A stretch of 64,000 nucleotides of DNA, taken from the NCBI RefSeq assembly GCF_045037415.1, contig NZ_CP173438.1; one strand, written 5' to 3'. A program made the position numbers and the translations under genes. The notes below the pieces were generated by a model that was given only the letters and a program-made list of their open reading frames with translations, had not been told where the DNA came from and did no database searches. Of the stretch, positions 1,822 to 45,530 are shown piece after piece (position 1 is the stretch's first letter; each line of letters begins with the position of its first letter). This DNA comes from Escherichia coli (lineage in GTDB: Bacteria > Pseudomonadota > Gammaproteobacteria > Enterobacterales > Enterobacteriaceae).

Positions 1822-4254
1822 ATGACCACACTGAAACTGGACACGCTCAGCGATCGCATTAAAGCGCACAAAAATGCGCTGGTGCATATTGTGAAACCGC
1901 CGGTCTGTACCGAGCGCGCGCAGCACTATACCGAGATGTATCAACAACATCTCGATAAGCCGATCCCGGTACGTCGCGCGCTGGCACTGGCGCATCACCT
2001 GGCGAATCGCACCATCTGGATCAAACATGATGAATTGATCATTGGCAACCAGGCAAGCGAAGTTCGCGCCGCGCCGATCTTCCCGGAATATACCGTCTCC
2101 TGGATCGAAAAAGAGATTGATGATCTGGCAGATCGTCCCGGTGCTGGTTTTGCGGTGAGTGAAGAGAACAAACGCGTTCTGCATGAAGTGTGCCCGTGGT
2201 GGCGCGGTCAGACCGTACAGGATCGCTGCTACGGCATGTTTACCGATGAGCAAAAAGGTCTGCTGGCGACCGGCATCATTAAAGCGGAGGGCAATATGAC
2301 CTCCGGCGATGCGCACCTGGCGGTCAATTTCCCGCTACTGCTGGAAAAAGGTCTTGATGGTCTGCGTGAGAAAGTGGCGGAACGTCGCTCGCGCATCAAT
2401 CTGACGGTTCTGGAAGATCTGCACGGCGAGCAATTCCTGAAAGCGATTGATATCGTGCTGGTGGCAGTCAGTGAACACATTGAACGTTTCGCTGCCCTGG
2501 CGCGTGAAATGGCCGCGACCGAAACCCGCGAAAGCCGTCGCGATGAACTGCTGACGATAGCAGAAAACTGCGATCTTATCGCCCACCAGCCGCCGCAGAC
2601 TTTCTGGCAGGCGCTGCAACTGTGTTACTTCATCCAGTTGATTTTGCAGATTGAATCTAACGGTCACTCGGTATCGTTTGGTCGTATGGACCAGTATCTC
2701 TATCCATACTATCGCCGTGACGTTGAACTGAACCAGACACTGGATCGCGAACACGCCATCGAGATGCTGCATAGCTGCTGGTTGAAATTGCTGGAAGTGA
2801 ACAAAATCCGCTCCGGCTCACACTCAAAAGCCTCTGCGGGAAGTCCGCTGTATCAGAACGTCACCATTGGCGGGCAAAATCTGGTTGATGGTCAACCGAT
2901 GGACGCGGTAAATCCACTCTCTTATGCGATCCTCGAATCTTGCGGTCGCCTGCGTTCGACTCAGCCTAACCTCAGCGTGCGTTACCATGCGGGTATGAGT
3001 AACGATTTCCTCGACGCCTGTGTTCAGGTGATCCGCTGCGGCTTCGGGATGCCGGCGTTCAACAACGACGAAATCGTCATCCCGGAATTTATTAAACTCG
3101 GTATTGAACCGCAGGACGCTTACGACTACGCAGCAATTGGTTGTATCGAAACCGCCGTCGGTGGCAAATGGGGCTATCGCTGTACCGGCATGAGCTTTAT
3201 CAACTTCGCCCGCGTGATGCTGGCGGCGCTGGAAGGCGGTCGTGATGCCACCAGCGGCAAAGTGTTCCTGCCACAAGAAAAAGCGTTGTCAGCGGGTAAC
3301 TTCAACAACTTCGATGAAGTAATGGACGCATGGGATACGCAAATCCGTTACTACACGCGTAAATCAATCGAAATCGAATATGTCGTCGACACCATGCTGG
3401 AAGAGAACGTACACGATATTCTCTGCTCGGCGCTGGTCGATGACTGTATTGAGCGAGCGAAAAGTATTAAGCAAGGCGGCGCGAAATATGACTGGGTTTC
3501 TGGCCTGCAGGTCGGCATTGCTAACCTCGGCAACAGCCTGGCGGCAGTGAAGAAACTGGTATTTGAACAGGGCGCGATTGGTCAGCAACAGCTGGCTGCC
3601 GCACTGGCGGATGACTTCGACGGTCTGACTCACGAGCAGCTGCGTCAGCGGCTGATTAACGGTGCGCCTAAGTACGGCAACGACGATGATACTGTCGATA
3701 CGCTGCTGGCTCGCGCTTATCAGACCTATATCGACGAACTAAAACAGTACCATAACCCACGCTACGGTCGTGGTCCGGTTGGCGGCAACTATTACGCGGG
3801 TACGTCGTCTATCTCCGCTAACGTACCCTTTGGCGCGCAGACTATGGCAACACCGGACGGGCGTAAAGCGCATACCCCGCTGGCAGAAGGCGCTAGTCCG
3901 GCCTCCGGTACTGACCATCTCGGCCCAACGGCGGTCATTGGCTCAGTAGGTAAACTGCCTACGGCCGCGATTCTCGGCGGCGTGCTGCTCAACCAGAAAC
4001 TGAATCCAGCAACGCTGGAGAACGAATCTGACAAGCAGAAACTGATGATCCTGCTGCGCACCTTCTTTGAAGTGCATAAAGGCTGGCATATTCAGTACAA
4101 CATCGTTTCCCGCGAGACGCTGCTGGAGGCGAAAAAACATCCGGATCAGTATCGCGATCTGGTAGTGCGCGTCGCGGGCTATTCCGCCTTCTTCACCGCG
4201 CTCTCTCCAGACGCTCAGGACGATATCATCGCCCGTACTGAACATATGCTGTAA
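1822..4254 (+). CDS. ybiW: glycyl radical enzyme, PFL-like (PflF), substrate unknown
   Basis: 810 aa; C-terminal glycine-radical motif RVAGYSAFF; single active-site Cys in GCIET; immediately downstream of its activase. Confidence 0.92.
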   Translation: MTTLKLDTLSDRIKAHKNALVHIVKPPVCTERAQHYTEMYQQHLDKPIPVRRALALAHHLANRTIWIKHDELIIGNQASEVRAAPIFPEYTVSWIEKEIDDLADRPGAGFAVSEENKRVLHEVCPWWRGQTVQDRCYGMFTDEQKGLLATGIIKAEGNMTSGDAHLAVNFPLLLEKGLDGLREKVAERRSRINLTVLEDLHGEQFLKAIDIVLVAVSEHIERFAALAREMAATETRESRRDELLTIAENCDLIAHQPPQTFWQALQLCYFIQLILQIESNGHSVSFGRMDQYLYPYYRRDVELNQTLDREHAIEMLHSCWLKLLEVNKIRSGSHSKASAGSPLYQNVTIGGQNLVDGQPMDAVNPLSYAILESCGRLRSTQPNLSVRYHAGMSNDFLDACVQVIRCGFGMPAFNNDEIVIPEFIKLGIEPQDAYDYAAIGCIETAVGGKWGYRCTGMSFINFARVMLAALEGGRDATSGKVFLPQEKALSAGNFNNFDEVMDAWDTQIRYYTRKSIEIEYVVDTMLEENVHDILCSALVDDCIERAKSIKQGGAKYDWVSGLQVGIANLGNSLAAVKKLVFEQGAIGQQQLAAALADDFDGLTHEQLRQRLINGAPKYGNDDDTVDTLLARAYQTYIDELKQYHNPRYGRGPVGGNYYAGTSSISANVPFGAQTMATPDGRKAHTPLAEGASPASGTDHLGPTAVIGSVGKLPTAAILGGVLLNQKLNPATLENESDKQKLMILLRTFFEVHKGWHIQYNIVSRETLLEAKKHPDQYRDLVVRVAGYSAFFTALSPDAQDDIIARTEHML

Positions 4255-4399: not shown

Positions 4400-5215
4400 A
4401 TGAGCGTAAAAGTTATCGTCACAGACATGGACGGTACTTTTCTTAACGACGCCAAAACGTACAACCAACCACGTTTTATGGCGCAATATCAGGAACTGAA
4501 AAAGCGCGGCATTGAGTTCGTTGTCGCCAGCGGTAATCAGTATTACCAGCTTATTTCGTTCTTTCCTGAGCTAAAGGATGAGATCTCTTTTGTCGCGGAA
4601 AACGGCGCACTGGTTTACGAACATGGCAAGCAGTTGTTCCACGGCGAACTGACCCGACATGAATCGCGGATTGTTATTGGCGAGTTGCTAAAAGATAAGC
4701 AACTCAATTTTGTCGCCTGCGGTCTGCAAAGTGCATATGTCAGCGAAAATGCCCCCGAAGCATTCGTCGCACTGATGGCAAAACACTACCATCGCCTGAA
4801 ACCTGTAAAAGATTATCAGGAGATTGACGACGTACTGTTCAAGTTTTCGCTCAACCTGCCGGATGAACAAATCCCGTTAGTGATCGACAAACTGCACATA
4901 ACGCTGGATGGCATTATGAAACCCGTCACCAGTGGTTTTGGCTTTATCGACTTGATTATTCCCGGTCTACATAAAGCAAACGGTATTTCGCGGTTACTGA
5001 AACGCTGGGATCTGTCACCGCAAAATGTGGTAGCGATTGGCGACAGCGGTAACGATGCGGAGATGCTGAAAATGGCGCGTTATTCCTTTGCGATGAGCAA
5101 TGCTGCGGAAAACATTAAACAAATCGCCCGTTACGCTACCGATGATAATAATCATGAAGGCGCGCTGAATGTGATTCAGGCGGTGCTGGAAAATAAACCG
5201 CCGTTTAATCTTTGA
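4400..5215 (+). CDS. ybiV: HAD-family sugar phosphatase
   Basis: 271 aa; N-terminal DxDGT motif ([11 protein letters not shown]); Cof-type HAD. Confidence 0.9.
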
Positions 5216-5257
5216 TTATCACCAATTCAGTTTATTGAGAAAGTGCATGTCATTATA

Positions 5258-5405
5258 CCGGATACGGCGTGACCGCCTTATTTGGCATACAAAATCATGA
5301 AAATTCAATATATTGCGATACACTACCAGGCCTGATAAGCGTAGCGCACCAGGCAATCTTGCGTTTGTCATCAGTTTCAGTAGCCCTGACCATATCAGGG
5401 CTACT
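5258..5405. repeat. REP/BIME-type composite extragenic palindrome (copy A)
   Basis: REP-like palindromes (gccggatacggcg...cgccttat; aggcctgataagcgtagcgcaccaggca) around a shared core caatatattgc...ttgtcatcagt; homologous to 30051-30194. Confidence 0.7.
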
Positions 5406-5414
5406 GATAATAAC

Positions 5415-7007
5415 TTACTCGATCCCTTTACTACGCAGGTAATCTTCGTAATTACCGCTAAAGTCGATCACGCGTTCCGGGGTGATTTCCAGAATACGGG
5501 TCGCCAGGGAGCTTACAAACTCACGGTCGTGAGAAACAAAGATCAGCGTGCCCTGATACAGTTCCAGCGCCATGTTCAGCGACTCAATGGATTCCATATC
5601 CAGGTGGTTGGTCGGTTCGTCCATGATCAGAATGTTCGGCTTCTGCATCATTAACTTACCAAACAGCATCCGCCCTTTTTCCCCACCGGAAAGCACTTTA
5701 GCTGGCTTTTTGATGTCGTCCTGGCTGAACAGCAAACGACCGAGAATACTGCGCACCGCCTGCTCGTCATCGCCTTCCTGCTTCCACTGACTCATCCATT
5801 CGAACACGGTCAGATCATTTTCAAACTCATATTCGTGGTCCTGAGCGTAGTAACCAATGCGCGCGTTTTCAGACCATTTTACGGTGCCGCTGTCCGGTTG
5901 CAGATCGCCCACCAGCGTTTTCAGCAGCGTTGATTTACCGACGCCGTTGGTACCCAGTACCGCCAGTTTTTCACCCACTTCCAGCAGCAGGTTGAGATTT
6001 TTAAACAGTGGACCGTTATCAAACCCTTTAGTCAGACCTTCCACTTCTAGCGCGTTACGGAACAGTTTCTTATCCTGTTCAAAACGGATGAACGGGTTCT
6101 GACGGCTGGAAGCTTTCACCTCTTCCAGTTTGATTTTATCAATCTGGCGCGCGCGCGAAGTTGCCTGGCGAGATTTCGAGGCGTTGGCGCTAAAGCGGCT
6201 AACGAAAGATTGCAACTCAGCAATCTGCGCTTTCTTCTTCGCGTTATCAGCCAGCAGACGTTCACGCGCCTGAGTCGCCGCCGTCATGTACTCATCGTAG
6301 TTGCCCGGATAAACGCGCAGCTCGCCGTAATCCAGATCCGCCATGTGGGTACAAACCATGTTAAGGAAGTGACGGTCGTGCGAGATGATGATCATGGTGC
6401 TGTCACGCTCGTTCAGCACCTGTTCCAGCCAGCGAATGGTGTCGATATCGAGGTTGTTGGTCGGTTCGTCGAGCAGGAGAATGTCGGGATCAGCAAACAG
6501 CGCCTGAGCCAGCAGCACACGCAGCTTCCAGCCAGGAGCAACTTCACTCATCGGGCCGTAGTGCTGTTCCACTGGAATTCCCACGCCAAGCAACAGTTCA
6601 CCAGCGCGAGCTTCCGCAGAGTAACCGTCCATTTCGCCGTATTTCACTTCCAGATCGGCCACTTTATAGCCGTCTTCTTCACTCATTTCCGGCAAAGCAT
6701 AGATGCGGTCACGCTCCTGCTTCACTTCCCACAACTCTTTATGCCCCATGATCACCGTATCCAGCACAGTGAACTCTTCAAAGGCAAACTGATCCTGACG
6801 CAGCTTACCAATGCGTTCGTTGGGATCGAGGGAAACGTTACCCAACGTCGGCTCTAAGTCGCCGCCGAGGATCTTCATAAAGGTGGATTTACCACTACCG
6901 TTCGCGCCAATCAGGCCGTAACGGTTGCCGCCGCCGAATTTGACGGAAATGTTTTCAAACAACGGCTTACTGCCGAACTGCATGGTGACGTTACTGGAAA
7001 CTAACAC
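5415..7007 (-). CDS. ybiT: ABC-F family ATPase (tandem ABC domains, no permease)
   Basis: 530 aa; two Walker A motifs GANGSGKST and GTNGVGKST. Confidence 0.92.
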
Positions 7008-31790: not shown

Positions 31791-35181
<3,391 letters not shown>

Positions 35182-35189
<8 letters not shown>

Positions 35190-36315
35190 TCCGATCCTGT
35201 CCTGGCGTCGCGTGCGGGCGCTGTGCGTCAAAGAGACGCGGCAGATCGTTCGCGATCCGAGTAGCTGGCTGATTGCAGTAGTGATCCCACTGCTACTGCT
35301 GTTTATTTTTGGATACGGCATTAACCTCGACTCCAGCAAGCTGCGCGTCGGGATTTTACTGGAACAACGTAGCGAAGCGGCGCTGGATTTCACCCACACC
35401 ATGACCGGTTCGCCCTACATCGACGCCACCATCAGCGATAACCGTCAGGAACTGATCGCCAAAATGCAGGCGGGGAAAATTCGCGGTCTGGTGGTTATTC
35501 CGGTGGATTTCGCCGAACAGATGGAGCGCGCCAACGCCATCGCACCGATTCAGGTGATTACCGACGGCAGTGAGCCGAATACCGCTAACTTTGTGCAGGG
35601 GTATGTCGAAGGGATCTGGCAGATCTGGCAAATGCAGCGAGCGGAGGATAACGGGCAGACTTTTGAACCGCTTATTGATGTACAAACCCGCTACTGGTTT
35701 AACCCGGCGGCGATAAGCCAGCACTTTATTATCCCCGGTGCGGTGACTATTATCATGACGGTCATCGGTGCGATTCTCACCTCGCTGGTGGTGGCGCGAG
35801 AATGGGAACGCGGCACCATGGAGGCTTTGCTCTCTACGGAGATTACCCGCACGGAGCTGCTGCTGTGTAAGCTGATCCCTTATTACTTTCTCGGGATGCT
35901 GGCGATGTTGCTGTGTATGCTGGTGTCGGTGTTTATTCTCGGCGTGCCGTATCGCGGGTCGCTGCTGATTCTGTTTTTTATCTCCAGCCTGTTTTTACTC
36001 AGTACCCTGGGGATGGGGCTGCTGATTTCCACGATTACCCGCAACCAGTTCAACGCCGCTCAGGTGGCCCTGAACGCGGCTTTTCTGCCGTCGATTATGC
36101 TTTCCGGCTTTATATTTCAGATAGACAGTATGCCCGCGGTGATCCGCGCGGTGACGTACATTATTCCCGCACGTTATTTCGTCAGCACTCTGCAAAGCCT
36201 GTTCCTCGCCGGGAATATTCCAGTGGTGCTGATAGTGAACGTGCTGTTTTTGATCGCTTCGGCGGTGATGTTTATCGGCCTGACGTGGCTGAAAACCAAA
36301 CGTCGGCTGGATTAG
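35182..36315 (+). CDS. ybhS: ABC-2 type permease
   Basis: 377 aa; multi-pass; start overlaps the ybhF stop. Confidence 0.9.
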
Positions 36316-36325
36316 GGAGAAGAGC

Positions 36326-37432
36326 ATGTTTCATCGCTTATGGACGTTAATCCGCAAAGAGTTGCAGTCGCTGCTGCGCGAACCGCAAACCCGCGCAATT
36401 CTGATTTTACCCGTGCTGATTCAGGTGATCCTGTTCCCGTTCGCCGCCACGCTGGAAGTGACCAACGCCACCATCGCCATCTACGATGAAGATAACGGCG
36501 AGCACTCAGTAGAACTTACTCAACGTTTTGCCCGCGCCAGCGCCTTTACCCATGTGCTGCTGCTGAAAAGCCCGCAGGAGATCCGCCCGACCATCGACAC
36601 ACAAAAGGCGTTACTACTGGTGCGTTTCCCGGCTGACTTCTCGCGCAAACTGGATACCTTCCAGACCGCGCCGTTGCAGTTGATCCTCGACGGGCGTAAC
36701 TCCAACAGTGCGCAAATTGCCGCCAACTACCTGCAACAGATCGTCAAAAATTATCAGCAGGAGCTGCTGGAAGGAAAACCGAAACCCAACAACAGCGAGC
36801 TGGTGGTACGCAACTGGTATAACCCGAATCTCGACTACAAATGGTTTGTGGTGCCGTCGCTGATCGCCATGATCACCACTATCGGCGTAATGATCGTCAC
36901 TTCACTTTCCGTCGCCCGCGAACGTGAACAAGGTACGCTCGATCAGTTGCTGGTTTCGCCCCTCACCACCTGGCAGATATTCATCGGCAAAGCCGTACCG
37001 GCATTAATTGTCGCCACCTTCCAGGCCACCATTGTGCTGGCGATTGGTATCTGGGCGTATCAAATCCCCTTCGCCGGATCGCTGGCGCTGTTCTACTTTA
37101 CGATGGTGATTTACGGTTTATCGCTGGTGGGATTCGGTCTGTTGATTTCATCACTCTGTTCAACACAACAGCAGGCGTTTATCGGCGTGTTTGTCTTTAT
37201 GATGCCCGCCATTCTCCTTTCCGGTTACGTTTCGCCGGTGGAAAACATGCCAGTGTGGCTGCAAAATCTGACGTGGATTAACCCTATTCGCCACTTTACG
37301 GACATTACCAAGCAGATTTATTTGAAGGATGCAAGTCTGGATATTGTGTGGAATAGTTTGTGGCCGCTACTGGTGATAACGGCCACGACAGGGTCAGCGG
37401 CGTACGCGATGTTTAGACGTAAGGTGATGTAA
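36326..37432 (+). CDS. ybhR: ABC-2 type permease
   Basis: 368 aa; paralogous to ybhS. Confidence 0.9.
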
Positions 37433-37804
37433 CTTCTTATCTTTCGCCAGCAAAGACACCACCGCCGGGCCGGCAAGGATTGCCAGCCCTGCAATTGCCA
37501 GCAAAAAGTTGTTTTCCAGTACGCGGGACAACAGCCACAGCACAATCAGCGCTGCACCAAAATACCAGGTCGTGGTCAGCTCTTCCAGCACGTCTGCCAC
37601 CTCACGCCAGCGTTGCTCTGGGTGGCGCTGAAACACCAGCATCATCACTACCGTGACACAATACAGTGCGCATAATCCTACGCCGACGTGAACCAGAGTT
37701 TTACTCATCCAACCCACCACCAGCAGCGCCACTACCAGTAAATGCAACATAATCTGCCAGCAACTTAGGCCAGTTGCGACACGAACACGTTGTTGCCACT
37801 TCAT
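37394..37804 (-). CDS. ybhQ: inner membrane protein (4 predicted TM helices)
   Basis: 136 aa hydrophobic protein; 3' end overlaps the ybhR 3' end by 39 bp (convergent). Confidence 0.85.
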
Positions 37805-37936
37805 GGCTTCTCTCCTGAAGAATTTATCTCTACTTATTCAGAGTACCGAACTTTACGGAAAATTCCGTAAGACCGCACCTTTTTGTGACGCCGACTACAC
37901 TATTTCAATGAGATAAGAGGCAAAGACAGGAAAATT

Positions 37937-38698
37937 ATGCCCGATCAAACACAACAATTTTCGTTCAAGGTGCTCACCATCAATATTCACAAAGGCTTTA
38001 CCGCGTTTAACCGACGCTTCATTTTACCGGAACTTCGCGACGCCGTGCGTACCGTCAGCGCCGATATTGTTTGCCTGCAGGAAGTGATGGGCGCGCACGA
38101 AGTTCATCCGCTGCATGTGGAAAACTGGCCCGATACCTCGCACTACGAGTTTCTCGCCGACACCATGTGGAGCGATTTCGCCTACGGTCGCAATGCCGTA
38201 TACCCGGAAGGACATCACGGTAACGCCGTTCTTTCACGTTATCCCATTGAACATTATGAGAATCGTGATGTTTCGGTCGATGGTGCGGAAAAGCGCGGCG
38301 TGCTCTACTGCCGCATTGTGCCGCCGATGACCGGGAAAGCGATTCATGTGATGTGCGTACATCTGGGCCTACGTGAGGCGCACCGTCAGGCGCAGCTTGC
38401 GATGCTCGCCGAATGGGTGAATGAGCTACCGGACGGCGAATCGGTATTGGTAGCGGGTGATTTCAACGACTGGCGGCAAAAAGCTAATCATCCGTTAAAA
38501 GTGCTGGCCGGGCTGGATGAGATTTTTACCCGCGCCCACGGACGTCCGGCGCGCACGTTTCCGGTGCAATTTCCTCTACTACGACTGGACAGGATCTACG
38601 TCAAAAATGCCAGCGCCAGCGCGCCAACCGCGTTGCCGCTGCGGACATGGCGACACCTTTCTGATCATGCCCCTTTAAGTGCGGAGATTCATTTATGA
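37937..38698 (+). CDS. ybhP: endonuclease/exonuclease/phosphatase-family protein
   Basis: 253 aa; EEP-family motifs (CLQEV..., GDFNDW, SDHAPL). Confidence 0.9.
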
Positions 38699-39936
38699 AA
38701 TGTAGCTGGCGCGAAGGCAATATGATCCAGTTGCTGGAAAACGGCGAGCAATATTATCCCGCGGTGTTTAAGGCGATTGGCGAGGCGCAAGAACGCATCA
38801 TTCTTGAAACGTTTATCTGGTTTGAGGATGACGTCGGCAAACAGCTGCATGCGGCGCTATTGGCAGCAGCGCAACGCGGGGTAAAAGCGGAAGTCTTGCT
38901 GGATGGCTACGGTTCGCCGGATCTCAGCGATGAATTTGTCAATGAACTGACGGCAGCTGGCGTGGTGTTCCGCTACTACGATCCCCGCCCTCGCCTTTTT
39001 GGTATGCGCACCAATGTGTTTCGCCGGATGCATCGCAAAATTGTGGTGATCGACGCGCGTATCGCCTTTATTGGCGGGCTGAATTACTCCGCCGAGCATA
39101 TGTCCAGCTACGGCCCGGAGGCCAAACAGGATTACGCGGTACGCCTCGAAGGGCCGATTGTCGAAGATATTCTCCAGTTTGAGCTGGAAAACCTGCCAGG
39201 ACAAAGCACGGCGCGACGCTGGTGGCGACGCCATCATAAAGCGGAAGAGAACCGCCAGCCGGGAGAAGCGCAGGTATTGCTGGTCTGGCGCGATAACGAA
39301 GAACATCGCGATGATATCGAACGTCACTATCTGAAAATGCTCACTCAGGCGCGGCGGGAAGTGATTATCGCCAACGCCTACTTCTTCCCCGGCTATCGTT
39401 TTTTACACGCCTTGCGTAAAGCGGCACGACGCGGGGTGCGGATCAAACTGATCATTCAGGGCGAACCGGATATGCCGATTGTCAGAGTCGGCGCGCGTTT
39501 GCTGTATAACTATCTGGTTAAAGGTGGCGTTCAGGTGTTTGAGTACCGCCGCCGCCCGCTCCACGGCAAAGTGGCATTGATGGACGATCACTGGGCGACA
39601 GTAGGGTCCAGTAATCTCGATCCGCTCAGTTTGTCACTGAATCTCGAAGCAAATGTCATCATCCACGATCGTAATTTTAACCAGACGCTGCGCGATAATC
39701 TGAACGGCATTATCGCCGCAGATTGTCAGCAGGTCGATGAGACCATGCTGCCGAAACGCACCTGGTGGAACCTGACTAAAAGCGTGCTGGCGTTCCACTT
39801 TCTACGCCACTTCCCGGCGCTGGTGGGCTGGCTTCCGGCGCACACGCCACGTCTGGCGCAGGTTGATCCCCCCGCACAACCGACAATGGAAACGCAGGAT
39901 CGGGTAGAAACTGAAAACACGGGGGTAAAACCCTGA
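38695..39936 (+). CDS. clsB: cardiolipin synthase B (phospholipase D family)
   Basis: 413 aa; two HxK(x4)D motifs ([17 protein letters not shown]); start overlaps the ybhP stop. Confidence 0.92.
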
Positions 39937-40892
39937 TGAGTAAATCACACCCGCGCTGGCGCTTAGCAAAGAAGATCCTCACCTGGCTGTTTTTTATCGC
40001 GGTGATTGTGTTGTTGGTGGTCTACGCCAAAAAAGTGGACTGGGAAGAGGTCTGGAAGGTCATCCGAGACTACAATCGCGTTGCACTGCTCAGTGCGGTC
40101 GGGCTGGTGGTCGTCAGCTATCTGATTTACGGTTGCTACGACCTGCTCGCCCGTTTCTACTGCGGTCACAAACTGGCGAAGCGCCAGGTGATGCTGGTGT
40201 CGTTTATCTGCTACGCCTTCAACCTGACACTCAGTACCTGGGTCGGCGGCATTGGTATGCGCTATCGTTTGTACTCCCGACTGGGGTTACCGGGCAGCAC
40301 TATTACGCGGATTTTTTCGCTCAGTATTACCACCAACTGGCTAGGCTATATTTTGCTAGCGGGGGTTATCTTTACCGCAGGCGTGGTGGAGTTGCCGGAT
40401 CACTGGTATGTCGATCAAACTACGCTGCGTATTCTCGGCATTGGCTTACTGATGATTATCGCGGTTTATTTGTGGTTTTGCGCTTTCGCGAAGCACCGCC
40501 ATATGACCATCAAAGGGCAAAAGCTGGTGCTGCCTTCGTGGAAATTCGCCCTCGCCCAGATGCTGATTTCCAGCGTTAACTGGATGGTAATGGGAGCGAT
40601 TATCTGGCTGTTACTTGGTCAAAGCGTAAGCTATTTCTTTGTACTGGGCGTGTTGCTGGTTAGTAGTATTGCTGGCGTCATCGTGCATATTCCGGCGGGA
40701 ATTGGTGTGCTGGAAGCGGTGTTTATCGCGCTACTGGCTGGGGAGCATACCTCCAAAGGCACAATTATCGCCGCCCTACTTGCTTACCGTGTGCTGTATT
40801 ACTTTATCCCACTGCTGCTGGCGCTGATCTGTTACCTGTTGCTGGAAAGCCAGGCGAAGAAGCTACGGGCGAAAAATGAAGCGGCGATGTGA
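39936..40892 (+). CDS. ybhN: inner membrane protein (LPG-synthase-like TM domain)
   Basis: 318 aa multi-pass; start overlaps the clsB stop. Confidence 0.88.
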   Translation: MSKSHPRWRLAKKILTWLFFIAVIVLLVVYAKKVDWEEVWKVIRDYNRVALLSAVGLVVVSYLIYGCYDLLARFYCGHKLAKRQVMLVSFICYAFNLTLSTWVGGIGMRYRLYSRLGLPGSTITRIFSLSITTNWLGYILLAGVIFTAGVVELPDHWYVDQTTLRILGIGLLMIIAVYLWFCAFAKHRHMTIKGQKLVLPSWKFALAQMLISSVNWMVMGAIIWLLLGQSVSYFFVLGVLLVSSIAGVIVHIPAGIGVLEAVFIALLAGEHTSKGTIIAALLAYRVLYYFIPLLLALICYLLLESQAKKLRAKNEAAM

Positions 40893-40927
40893 AGTATAGT
40901 TAAGTTCTTTAGTATGTGCATTTACGG

Positions 40928-41641
40928 CTAATGAAAAAACCGCGTATGCCTTTGCCAGACAAGCGTTATAGCTATAGCAGCAAGAATCCCAAAGAAACCG
41001 ATAAAATAGTAATAGAGTGTTAATGCACCTATAAAAGCACAACGAACCGGACTCCATAATTCTTCACTATGGCTTTTTCCTGTCAGTTCAAGGAGCTTAT
41101 TTCGTCCATGCGAGATAATGCCTGACCATAAGACAATCATTAAGCAACTTATTACCCAAATGGGTCGTTCACTCATTAATGTGGCATTCACGATGATTAC
41201 CAGGGCCAACCCTGTCAACGTCATCATAATGATAAAACGATGAGAACCAGGATCAAATTTAAACAATAGACCTGCCAGCATACTGATTAAAAACATCGAT
41301 CCCGCAGTGCTGAACACGACGATAATGGCAGATACAGGCGCTAAACTCGCAACGACAATCGCCACCAAAGAGATTAAAAACAAATATATTACGCCCGCGA
41401 TGGCGGTATTTATCTTGTTGATATCTTTACTTAAGCCATACATAGAAAGTAATAATAATCCTATAGCAACATACATTTGCGGTGAATCATATTTTGTTGC
41501 CGTAATTTCGAGATACTTAGCGCCCCAGGCCAGCCCTGCGGTTGCCACCAAACCCAAAGCGGTAATGAGCCATATGCCGTTTAATATCCTGGCTTCGTGC
41601 TGAAAATCTAATTTATTGCTATTTTGCGAGTATGATTCCAT
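40928..41641 (-). CDS. ybhM: inner membrane protein YbhM (7 predicted TM helices)
   Basis: 237 aa from MESYSQNSNK...; highly hydrophobic; visibly AT-rich relative to neighbours. Confidence 0.85.
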   Translation of the reverse strand: MESYSQNSNKLDFQHEARILNGIWLITALGLVATAGLAWGAKYLEITATKYDSPQMYVAIGLLLLSMYGLSKDINKINTAIAGVIYLFLISLVAIVVASLAPVSAIIVVFSTAGSMFLISMLAGLLFKFDPGSHRFIIMMTLTGLALVIIVNATLMSERPIWVISCLMIVLWSGIISHGRNKLLELTGKSHSEELWSPVRCAFIGALTLYYYFIGFFGILAAIAITLVWQRHTRFFH

Positions 41642-44401: not shown

Positions 44402-45391
44402 TTAGCCACCAATGTACGATAAGTTTTGCGTAATACCGGTGTTATTTTGATGCAGGAAATGGGTCTGTTTTTTCTCCCGCAGCGCCGCTGAAATACGCGC
44501 TTCCAGCGCCTGTTGCTGGGTATCGTTTTCCAGCAGATCGCGCAGGTTAACGCCGCCTTCACCAAACAGGCAGAGATGGAGTTTACCAATGGAGGAAACG
44601 CGCAGGCGGTTGCAAGTGGCGCAGAAATCTTTTTCATACGGCATGATAAGGCCAATCTCTCCGGCGTAATCCGGATGACAAAAGACTTGCGCGGGACCGT
44701 CGCTGCGTTGACGTAATTGGTGGATCCAGCCGCGACGCAGTAACTCGTCACGCAGAACCTGACCAGAGATGTGATGCTTACGGAAGAGCTCGCTGCCCTC
44801 GCCCGTTTCCATCAGTTCGATGAAACGCAGCTGGATGGGACGATGCTGGATCCAGTTCAGAAAGGTGTCGAGCTGGTGATGATTCACATCACGCATCAGC
44901 ACGGTATTGACTTTGACCTTCTCAAAACCGGCCTCAAATGCAGCATCGATTCCTGCCATGACCTGATTGAATTTATCCTGCCCGGTAATGGCATGAAACT
45001 GGCGAGCGTCAAGGCTATCAACGCTGACGTTGATGCCAGTAAGTCCAGCATCGCGCCAGTTCGCCACATCGCGCTCCAGACGGTAACCATTGGTGGTGAC
45101 CGCTATCTGGCGAATAGCGTCGTTTTCTCGCACAGCGGCGATGATATCGGTAAAGTCGCGGCGTAAAGATGGCTCACCACCTGTCAGACGGACTTTTTCG
45201 GTGCCCAGACTGGCGAAGGCGCGCGTAACCCGGCGAATTTCATCGACGGTCAGGAAGCCTTTATTGGTGACGCCGCTCGGCTTGTAACCATCCGGCAGGC
45301 AGTAGGTGCAACGAAAGTTACACACATCAGTAATCGACAGGCGCAAGTAGTAAAACTTACGCGCAAATGCATCAGTCAGTTGTGAAGCCAT
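44402..45391 (-). CDS. moaA: GTP 3',8-cyclase (radical SAM)
   Basis: 329 aa from [31 protein letters not shown]; radical-SAM CxxxCxxC. Confidence 0.93.
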
Positions 45392-45530
45392 GTACACCTT
45401 TCCAGATACGGGAGGCGAAGTCATTTCTTCCTTCGCCCTGGTGGCAATCTTTACGAGCATTGTCACGGCCAAAGCACCGTATCAGTTGACCCAGGTGCAG
45501 AGGCTAGAGTGTTTAGTGGTTAAGCCGATA
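45392..45530 (-). ncRNA. Moco riboswitch region in the moaA 5' leader
   Basis: structured leader directly upstream of moaA with hairpin ggcgaaggaagaaatgacttcgcc and RBS ggaaagg; assignment by position and recalled knowledge, not a covariance-model fit. Confidence 0.5.

Follow-up and report, generated by a model that had tools for sequence, protein, structure and literature searches.

The convergent genes ybhR and ybhQ of Escherichia coli share a conserved 39-bp coding end

The stretch of Escherichia coli chromosome analysed here (the window, 64,000 nucleotides) carries the gene order cecR-ybhG-ybhF-ybhS-ybhR on the plus strand, ybhQ on the minus strand and ybhP-clsB-ybhN on the plus strand again. 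The efflux operon cecR-ybhGFSR ends with ybhR, which encodes an ABC-2 type permease (Pfam ABC2_membrane_3, residues 25-359, E = 4e-51). The product of the neighboring gene ybhQ is an inner-membrane protein of 136 aa that belongs to the YbhQ family (Pfam PF11076, E = 2e-73, 244.8 bits against a gathering cut-off of 27.4), matched over the full length of the profile (positions 1-132 of 132). The two genes converge, and their opposite-strand open reading frames have their 3'-terminal nucleotides in common (Table 1). The shared segment takes in ybhR codons 357-368 with the stop codon and, on the other strand, ybhQ codons 125-136 with the stop codon; the PF11076 profile, which spans residues 1-132 of the 136 in YbhQ, extends into it. 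Within the overlap the frames are exactly codon-opposed, with codon positions 1, 2 and 3 of ybhR lying opposite positions 3, 2 and 1 of ybhQ, and each stop is the complement of a codon of the partner: the ybhQ TGA complements the TCA of ybhR Ser357, and the ybhR TAA complements the TTA of ybhQ Leu125.

Table 1. Features of the ybhR-ybhQ convergent gene end, in window coordinates.
Feature	Position	Strand	Basis and remarks
ybhR coding sequence	36326..37432	+	ORF list; 368 aa; stop TAA at 37430-37432
ybhQ coding sequence	37394..37804	-	ORF list; 136 aa; stop TGA read 37396 to 37394
Dual-coding overlap of ybhR and ybhQ	37394..37432	both	39 bp, read directly from the sequence
Dominant ybhQ mRNA 3' end	37344	-	Term-seq; MG1655 825080 (+ there); PMC7815308 Supplementary file 1, two entries
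Rho-dependent termination region of ybhQ-strand transcripts, inside ybhR (approximate peak)	~37242	-	Bicyclomycin (BCM); MG1655 825182 (+); PMC7815308 Supplementary file 2
Rho-dependent termination region of ybhR-strand (ybhGFSR) transcripts, inside ybhQ (approximate peak)	~37495	+	BCM; MG1655 824929 (-); PMC7815308 Supplementary file 2
Stem-loop in the ybhQ 3' UTR, within ybhR codons 345-354	37360..37386	-	11-bp stem, 5-nt loop

In a 100%-identical E. coli chromosome, the RefSeq/PGAP annotation has both genes with an identical overlap (locus L001, ybhR 4427-5533 and ybhQ 5495-5905). A 1.1-kb query around the site matched strain SK1144 at 100% identity and was found in 5423 of 5426 complete E. 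coli genomes, with both genes annotated across the region among the matches listed. A 99-nt query centred on the overlap matched all 5423 genomes at 95% identity or more, and 3826 of them at 99% or more.

To follow the arrangement beyond the species, both stop codons were located in 80 species-representative Enterobacteriaceae loci, in which YbhR identity was 84-100%. The overlap is exactly 39 bp in 67 of these loci, with YbhQ identity of 67-98%, from Escherichia, Salmonella, Citrobacter, Enterobacter, Leclercia, Kluyvera, Yokenella, Atlantibacter, Siccibacter, Phytobacter and part of Kosakonia, among others. One further locus (Kosakonia cowanii, L052) has an overlap of 48 bp, one (L079) has a frameshifted ybhR, and the remaining 11 have no overlap, the genes standing 2-206 bp apart. 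The ybhQ stop is shifted in just one of 69 overlapping loci, that of K. cowanii. A search for YbhQ homologues found 817 proteins, and those among the matches listed (Citrobacter, Salmonella, Leclercia and Enterobacter) are nearly all 136 aa long. Homologues of several genera end in a conserved KHR(V/I)R(R/H), preceded by a proximal tail (residues 125-130) that is poorly conserved, and the C-terminus of YbhR is conserved up to its last residues in all loci compared. The earlier note on this DNA had read the 39-bp sharing of gene ends from the letters alone and had proposed aligning homologues, in case one of the genes should prove to end earlier. The ORF list, RefSeq and the homologues all confirm the sharing, and the overlap stays when the alignment is made.

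Convergent overlaps of this kind belong to a known class, of which E. coli has 75 (Huvet and Stumpf, 2014; PMC4161906). The members of that class are pairs of real opposite-strand genes with common 3' ends, they arise by stop-codon displacement, and their overlaps are more conserved than the adjoining sequence. We find no essential difference between this description and ybhR-ybhQ, where both genes are real, both stops are backed by homologues and selection appears to act on both frames, the last point being indicative only given the non-independence of the taxa.

The length of the overlap is by itself unremarkable. At 39 bp it exceeds the very short overlaps that form most of the convergent class, but such a length is easy to reach in the codon-opposed phase, where the antisense frame is closed solely by sense TTA, CTA or TCA codons. 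With the codon usage of ybhR and ybhQ, the frame stays open for at least 12 codons by chance with a probability of 0.63-0.70. What exceeds chance is that the exact arrangement has been kept across genera.

We compared column entropies (H) among 68 distinct sequences with the 39-bp overlap. By ybhR codon position, entropy in the overlap is 0.36/0.26/0.81, and in the upstream sequence that codes for ybhR only it is 0.34/0.14/0.90. At third positions of ybhQ, entropy falls from 1.30 in ybhQ-only sequence to 0.36 in the overlap. The likeness to ybhR-only sequence, together with the drop at ybhQ third positions, argues that ybhR dominates the constraint in the overlap and that variation tracks its frame. 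Consistent with this, the V/I alternation in the YbhQ tail corresponds to a synonymous TAC/TAT change at ybhR Tyr360, and the LHHLTS stretch, the proximal part of that tail, is free to vary as ybhR changes synonymously.

A second footprint is seen in the distal third of the overlap, at the end of YbhQ. At ybhR codons 357, 359 and 361 the four-fold degenerate sites show H of 0, 0.40 and 0.42, and codon 358 never varies at its third position among the overlap sequences. Across 145 four-fold sites elsewhere in ybhR the mean is 1.16, and 6.9% of the sites have H of 0.5 or less. In YbhQ these low-entropy sites serve as first codon positions, those of Arg133, Arg135 and Arg/His136 and of the stop codon, although the zero at codon 357 is partly built in, the choice of 39-bp loci having fixed the ybhQ stop there. 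The same sites are relaxed where the overlap is missing: the third positions of Ala358 and Ala359 are off consensus in 5 of 130 cells from overlap taxa and in 5 of 22 from non-overlap taxa (Fisher p = 0.006; like the entropies, this comparison is indicative only, the taxa being phylogenetically non-independent), and the complement of TGA is lost in 4 of 11 non-overlap taxa. Near-frozen synonymous sites of ybhR opposite the end of YbhQ, relaxed in taxa that lack the overlap, argue for constraint on both frames. The pattern is indicative of strong selection on ybhR throughout, and of selection on ybhQ for its terminal basic residues (KHR-V/I-R-R/H) and stop only.

The loci without overlap come from Raoultella, some Kosakonia and a few genomes labelled Enterobacter. 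Their YbhQ proteins are 142-145 aa long and end in an unrelated tail (FGLHQGGNAANPxKHR and stop), the C-terminus of YbhR is kept, and the additional DNA starts exactly after the ybhR stop. In two of them (L064 and L066) this insert is made up of two copies in tandem, of about 122 nt, and has internal inverted repeats. Searched with 131 nt from L064, E. coli genomes have a median of 4 and a maximum of 8 matches that are intergenic and unannotated, about 75% identical to the query. The insert carries GTGACCGGGGTGAGCG, a 16-nt match with one mismatch to the core of the ERIC2 primer. Against the full-length ERIC1R and ERIC2 primers, the inserted element gave no match within 3 mismatches. Given the 16-nt core and the multi-copy intergenic distribution in E. 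coli, we call the element an ERIC-like dispersed repeat, a label that falls short of proven ERIC. We read its insertion as the probable event that uncoupled ybhR from ybhQ and gave YbhQ a new tail. These lineages show that the tail sequence of YbhQ is replaceable, though the replacement too ends in basic residues, and that the C-terminus of YbhR is not. Rfam, searched at the gathering threshold, gave no hit in the overlap or its vicinity, and none in five of the non-overlap loci.

Published transcriptome data for MG1655 were placed on the window as window position = 37394 + (825030 - genome coordinate), a conversion verified via an identical 60-mer. The dominant 3' end of ybhQ mRNA, classed as primary for ybhQ and antisense for ybhR (Adams et al., 2021; PMC7815308), falls 50 nt beyond the ybhQ stop, inside ybhR, and the 60-nt sequence given with it matches window positions 37344-37403, reverse-complemented, at every base. 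The same study reports a BCM-sensitive region on each strand, with a Rho score of 3.95 (p = 5e-7) for ybhQ-strand transcripts and of 3.85 (p = 2e-7) for ybhR-strand transcripts, the latter peaking 63 nt beyond the ybhR stop. The RNA downstream of the stops has a C:G ratio of 1.33 for ybhQ and 1.54 for ybhR, a C-rich, G-poor make-up that fits Rho loading on RNA vacated by ribosomes. Both strands therefore show BCM read-through and the RNA composition of Rho-dependent termination.

Consensus scans of 36800-38100 and 32000-41500 found no intrinsic terminator at either gene end, with counts near those of shuffled sequence, and none on the plus strand between 37432 and 38003. The only nearby candidate, at 37476-37459 on the minus strand, was rejected for its position upstream of the ybhQ stop and its poor T-tract. 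A bidirectional intrinsic terminator is likewise ruled out: the stem-loop in the ybhQ 3' UTR is followed by AAACUAUUCC, with no U-tract.

Counted from the final base of the ybhQ stop codon, this hairpin begins 8 nt downstream, and 16 nt separate its end from the mapped 3' end of the RNA. Its predicted fold has a free energy of -19.2 kcal/mol (z = -3.55). Over 75 distinct sequences, 90% of the cells are paired, and 4 cells show compensatory changes from G-C to A-U. The two four-fold sites of ybhR in the core stem are near-frozen (P347, H = 0.12; A353, H = 0; against the background mean of 1.16). A comparison of the two strands over the eight core pairs gave 21 cells of the G-U type and 12 of the C-A type. 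Conservation of the hairpin is in part protein-driven, as its arms encode the conserved W-P and A-T residues of YbhR.

The earlier note had proposed that the transcripts of the two genes would be mutually antisense at their 3' ends, and had suggested strand-specific RNA data across the gene ends as a check. The published MG1655 data answer this, and the proposal is supported by the Term-seq 3' end, the two Rho regions, captured double-stranded RNA and a published listing: ybhQ-ybhR is one of 165 convergent excludons of MG1655 found by ExcludonFinder, on the criterion that transcripts overlap in 50% or more of 58 RNA-seq samples (Sanmartin et al., NAR 2025; PMC12288877). The RNA overlap is also longer than the 39 nt of the coding overlap. 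Each transcript runs on into its partner until Rho stops it, which makes the two mRNAs complementary over some 150 nt (37344-37495), and perhaps over about 250 nt.

Double-stranded RNA captured with p19 (PMC7373196) amounts to 293/205/281/342 RPM for ybhQ, 322/230/304/354 RPM for ybhR and 27/30/16/20 RPM for ybhS. The near-equal values for ybhQ and ybhR, which are gene-level counts, suggest the shared zone as the source of the reads. In total RNA over ybhR the antisense signal (24 RPM) exceeds the sense signal (14 RPM). Loss of RNase III in two mutants, under one growth condition, derepressed neither gene: going from the wild type to rnc-14 and rnc-38, sense RNA was 14.2, 11.6 and 6.2 RPM for ybhR and 111, 99 and 65 RPM for ybhQ. 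In the part of the supplementary text of PMC7373196 that was searched, ybhQ-ybhR is not among the named dsRNA clusters, and we found no experiment in the literature on a cis effect or cis interference for this pair. Of the suggestion in the earlier note that transcriptional interference or RNA duplexes might act between the efflux operon and ybhQ, the mutually antisense 3' ends on which it builds have support; interference, or regulation through a duplex, is a possibility only, neither RNA having risen in the rnc mutants.

The locus thus resembles two known kinds of system at the RNA level. It shares with convergent excludons the overlapping transcripts and the captured double-stranded reads, and is itself in the list (PMC12288877), but it differs from them in lacking, in the available data, exclusive expression dependent on RNase III or interference, with no derepression and no sign of opposing expression in the rnc strains under that one condition. 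In typical excludons it is long UTRs that overlap, whereas here the coding sequences do, so that the overlap of the transcripts is unavoidable rather than regulated. With Rho-terminated mRNAs that are trimmed back to a stem-loop (Dar and Sorek, 2018; PMC6061677; Adams et al., 2021), ybhQ has in common a BCM-sensitive region, C-rich and G-poor RNA, a hairpin without a U-tract and the lack of an intrinsic terminator. The differences are that the rut-like region and the hairpin of ybhQ lie within the coding sequence of the convergent gene, and that 16 nt separate its 3' end from the stem, more than simple trimming to the hairpin base would leave.

The end shared by ybhR and ybhQ is a true dual-coding tail-to-tail overlap, and we consider it likely that it is old and reflects tolerated genome compaction rather than a dedicated switch. 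The ybhQ frame would have run into the 3' end of ybhR by stop-codon displacement, in an antisense phase that is poor in stops. This direction, with ybhQ extended into ybhR, is suggested by the asymmetry of constraint rather than by a rooted phylogeny, and a non-overlapping ancestor is possible. Any later insertion or deletion would damage both YbhR and YbhQ, and the overlap would be held in place passively for that reason. The distal basic end of YbhQ and its stop would freeze the synonymous sites of ybhR opposite them, while the proximal half drifts. As no intergenic space is left, neither gene has an intrinsic terminator; in the published data each transcript enters the coding region of its partner and is stopped there by Rho. 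Once Rho had ended transcription and exonucleases had trimmed the RNA, the hairpin would protect the 3' end of ybhQ. Some duplex would form, with an antisense effect on regulation that is small or conditional and of little weight at steady state.

A functional convergent excludon, in which the overlap has been selected for mutual antagonism between a sigma-E-inducible ybhQ and the CecR-controlled ybhGFSR, via polymerase collision and/or RNase III, is in our judgement unlikely. It would fit the listing of the pair among convergent excludons, the conservation of the arrangement across genera, p19 reads in ybhQ and ybhR about ten times as many as in ybhS, an antisense signal over ybhR above the sense signal, and the reported induction of ybhQ in the sigma-E response (PMC2731931). 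Against it, the ExcludonFinder criterion is trivially satisfied by any pair with overlapping coding sequences, double coding constraint accounts for the conservation without regulation, and the p19 study found double-stranded RNA mostly at 5' (divergent) rather than 3' overlaps (PMC7373196). Removal of RNase III brought no derepression, and several lineages in which the genes are split, by 2-206 bp and in some through repeat insertion, have kept both genes. The rnc result comes from a single condition and may leave room for conditional regulation, for example when sigma-E induces ybhQ. One such conditional cis-antisense coupling would be the following: under envelope stress, sigma-E-driven transcription of ybhQ would extend about 150 nt or more into ybhR and lower YbhFSR output by collision or duplex-triggered decay, with the hairpin setting the stability of the ybhQ 3' UTR. 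We regard this as improbable, if conceivable.

Less probable still is that the RNA element is primary, the hairpin serving as 3'-end stabiliser or terminator of ybhQ and the coding overlap being secondary to it. The stability of the fold, its pairing across taxa with some compensatory change, the near-frozen synonymous sites of its core and the Term-seq 3' end just downstream would all agree with an RNA function. The hairpin lies outside the 39-bp overlap, however, lacks the U-tract of a canonical intrinsic terminator and has arms that encode conserved YbhR residues; its sequence is also kept in taxa without the overlap, which leaves the overlap itself unexplained. An annotation artefact, with one gene ending earlier or ybhQ not real, would be in keeping with how readily codon-opposed antisense frames open by chance and with the poor conservation of YbhQ residues 125-130, but it is rejected on the homologue evidence as very improbable, given the reach of PF11076 to residue 132, the hundreds of YbhQ homologues and their near-uniform length where listed, the stop retained in 67 of 80 species loci, the conserved C-terminus of YbhR and the ybhR synonymous sites that are near-frozen opposite the YbhQ end and stop and relaxed where the overlap is absent.

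The overlap itself is already known: it is in the reference annotation, and the overlap of the transcripts, their 3' ends and their dependence on Rho are in published genome-wide data. Our additions are small ones, namely the two-frame selection footprint, an RNA overlap several times the length of the coding overlap, and the ERIC-like uncoupling, which makes the repeat-insertion lineages a natural uncoupling experiment. We therefore take the ybhR-ybhQ overlap to be an ordinary, real and conserved feature that matters little beyond housekeeping. Should it prove to be a true stress-responsive cis-antisense switch on an efflux pump, it would be of moderate interest for work on excludons and on intrinsic antibiotic tolerance.

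RNA from the ybhQ strand (minus) contains a hairpin that lies within ybhR (see table), and the published 3' end of the ybhQ mRNA falls 16 nt downstream of the end of this hairpin. The structure is conserved and is kept also in taxa without the ybhR/ybhQ overlap, and across genera the synonymous sites of ybhR in its core stem are almost invariant. Another RNA 3' end was detected by Term-seq inside the ybhQ ORF, ~70 nt in (window about 37734, minus strand; MG1655 824690), with a Rho score that is not significant (Adams et al., 2021; PMC7815308).

The overlap itself is abolished where an ERIC-like palindromic repeat of ~122-125 nt is present immediately 3' of the ybhR stop, an arrangement found in Raoultella, in part of Kosakonia and in a few species labelled 'Enterobacter'. 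YbhQ then has a replacement C-terminus (...FGLHQGGNAANPxKHR*) that is coded by the repeat. E. coli genomes each carry a median of 4 intergenic, unannotated matches to this element. Among the loci that retain an overlap, the ybhQ stop of Kosakonia cowanii is displaced, resulting in an overlap of 48 bp (L052, 2873-2920), and ybhR of Lelliottia nimipressuralis is frameshifted ~22 codons ahead of its usual end (L079, about 2911-2926), which may reflect a pseudogene or a sequencing error.

Short same-strand overlaps of the usual kind crowd the operons around ybhR and ybhQ. Further along the window, Rfam family RF01055, the molybdenum cofactor (Moco) riboswitch, has a full-length match of 103 bits at 45379-45523 on the minus strand. 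This match is presumably upstream of the moa operon, which includes moaE, a gene annotated close to ybhL in RefSeq.

Coordinates of features in the window and in the Enterobacteriaceae loci (L numbers; positions local to each locus)
Feature	Position	Strand	Remarks
Hairpin, 11-bp stem	window 37360-37386	- (RNA)	ybhR codons 345-354; -19.2 kcal/mol, z = -3.55
ERIC-like repeat	L064 2884-3125		tandem duplicate
ERIC-like repeat	L066 2878-3146		tandem duplicate
ERIC-like repeat	L060 about 2930-3000		single copy
ERIC-like repeat	L068 about 2930-2990		single copy
ERIC-like repeat	L025 about 2888-2985		single copy
ybhG/ybhF overlap	window 33453-33460		8 bp, by RefSeq start
ybhF/ybhS overlap	window 35182-35189		8 bp
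ybhP/clsB overlap	window 38695-38698		4 bp
clsB/ybhN overlap	window 39936		1 bp
ybhN	window about 39936-40892

Double-stranded RNA captured by p19 reached 985-1255 RPM on ybhN in three of the four Illumina samples, far above its neighbours (PMC7373196), and a Rho termination region was mapped antisense to it (window about 40435, minus strand; MG1655 821989, plus strand there) (Adams et al., 2021; PMC7815308). Taken together, the dsRNA excess and the antisense Rho region suggest that a sizeable antisense transcript is produced within ybhN.
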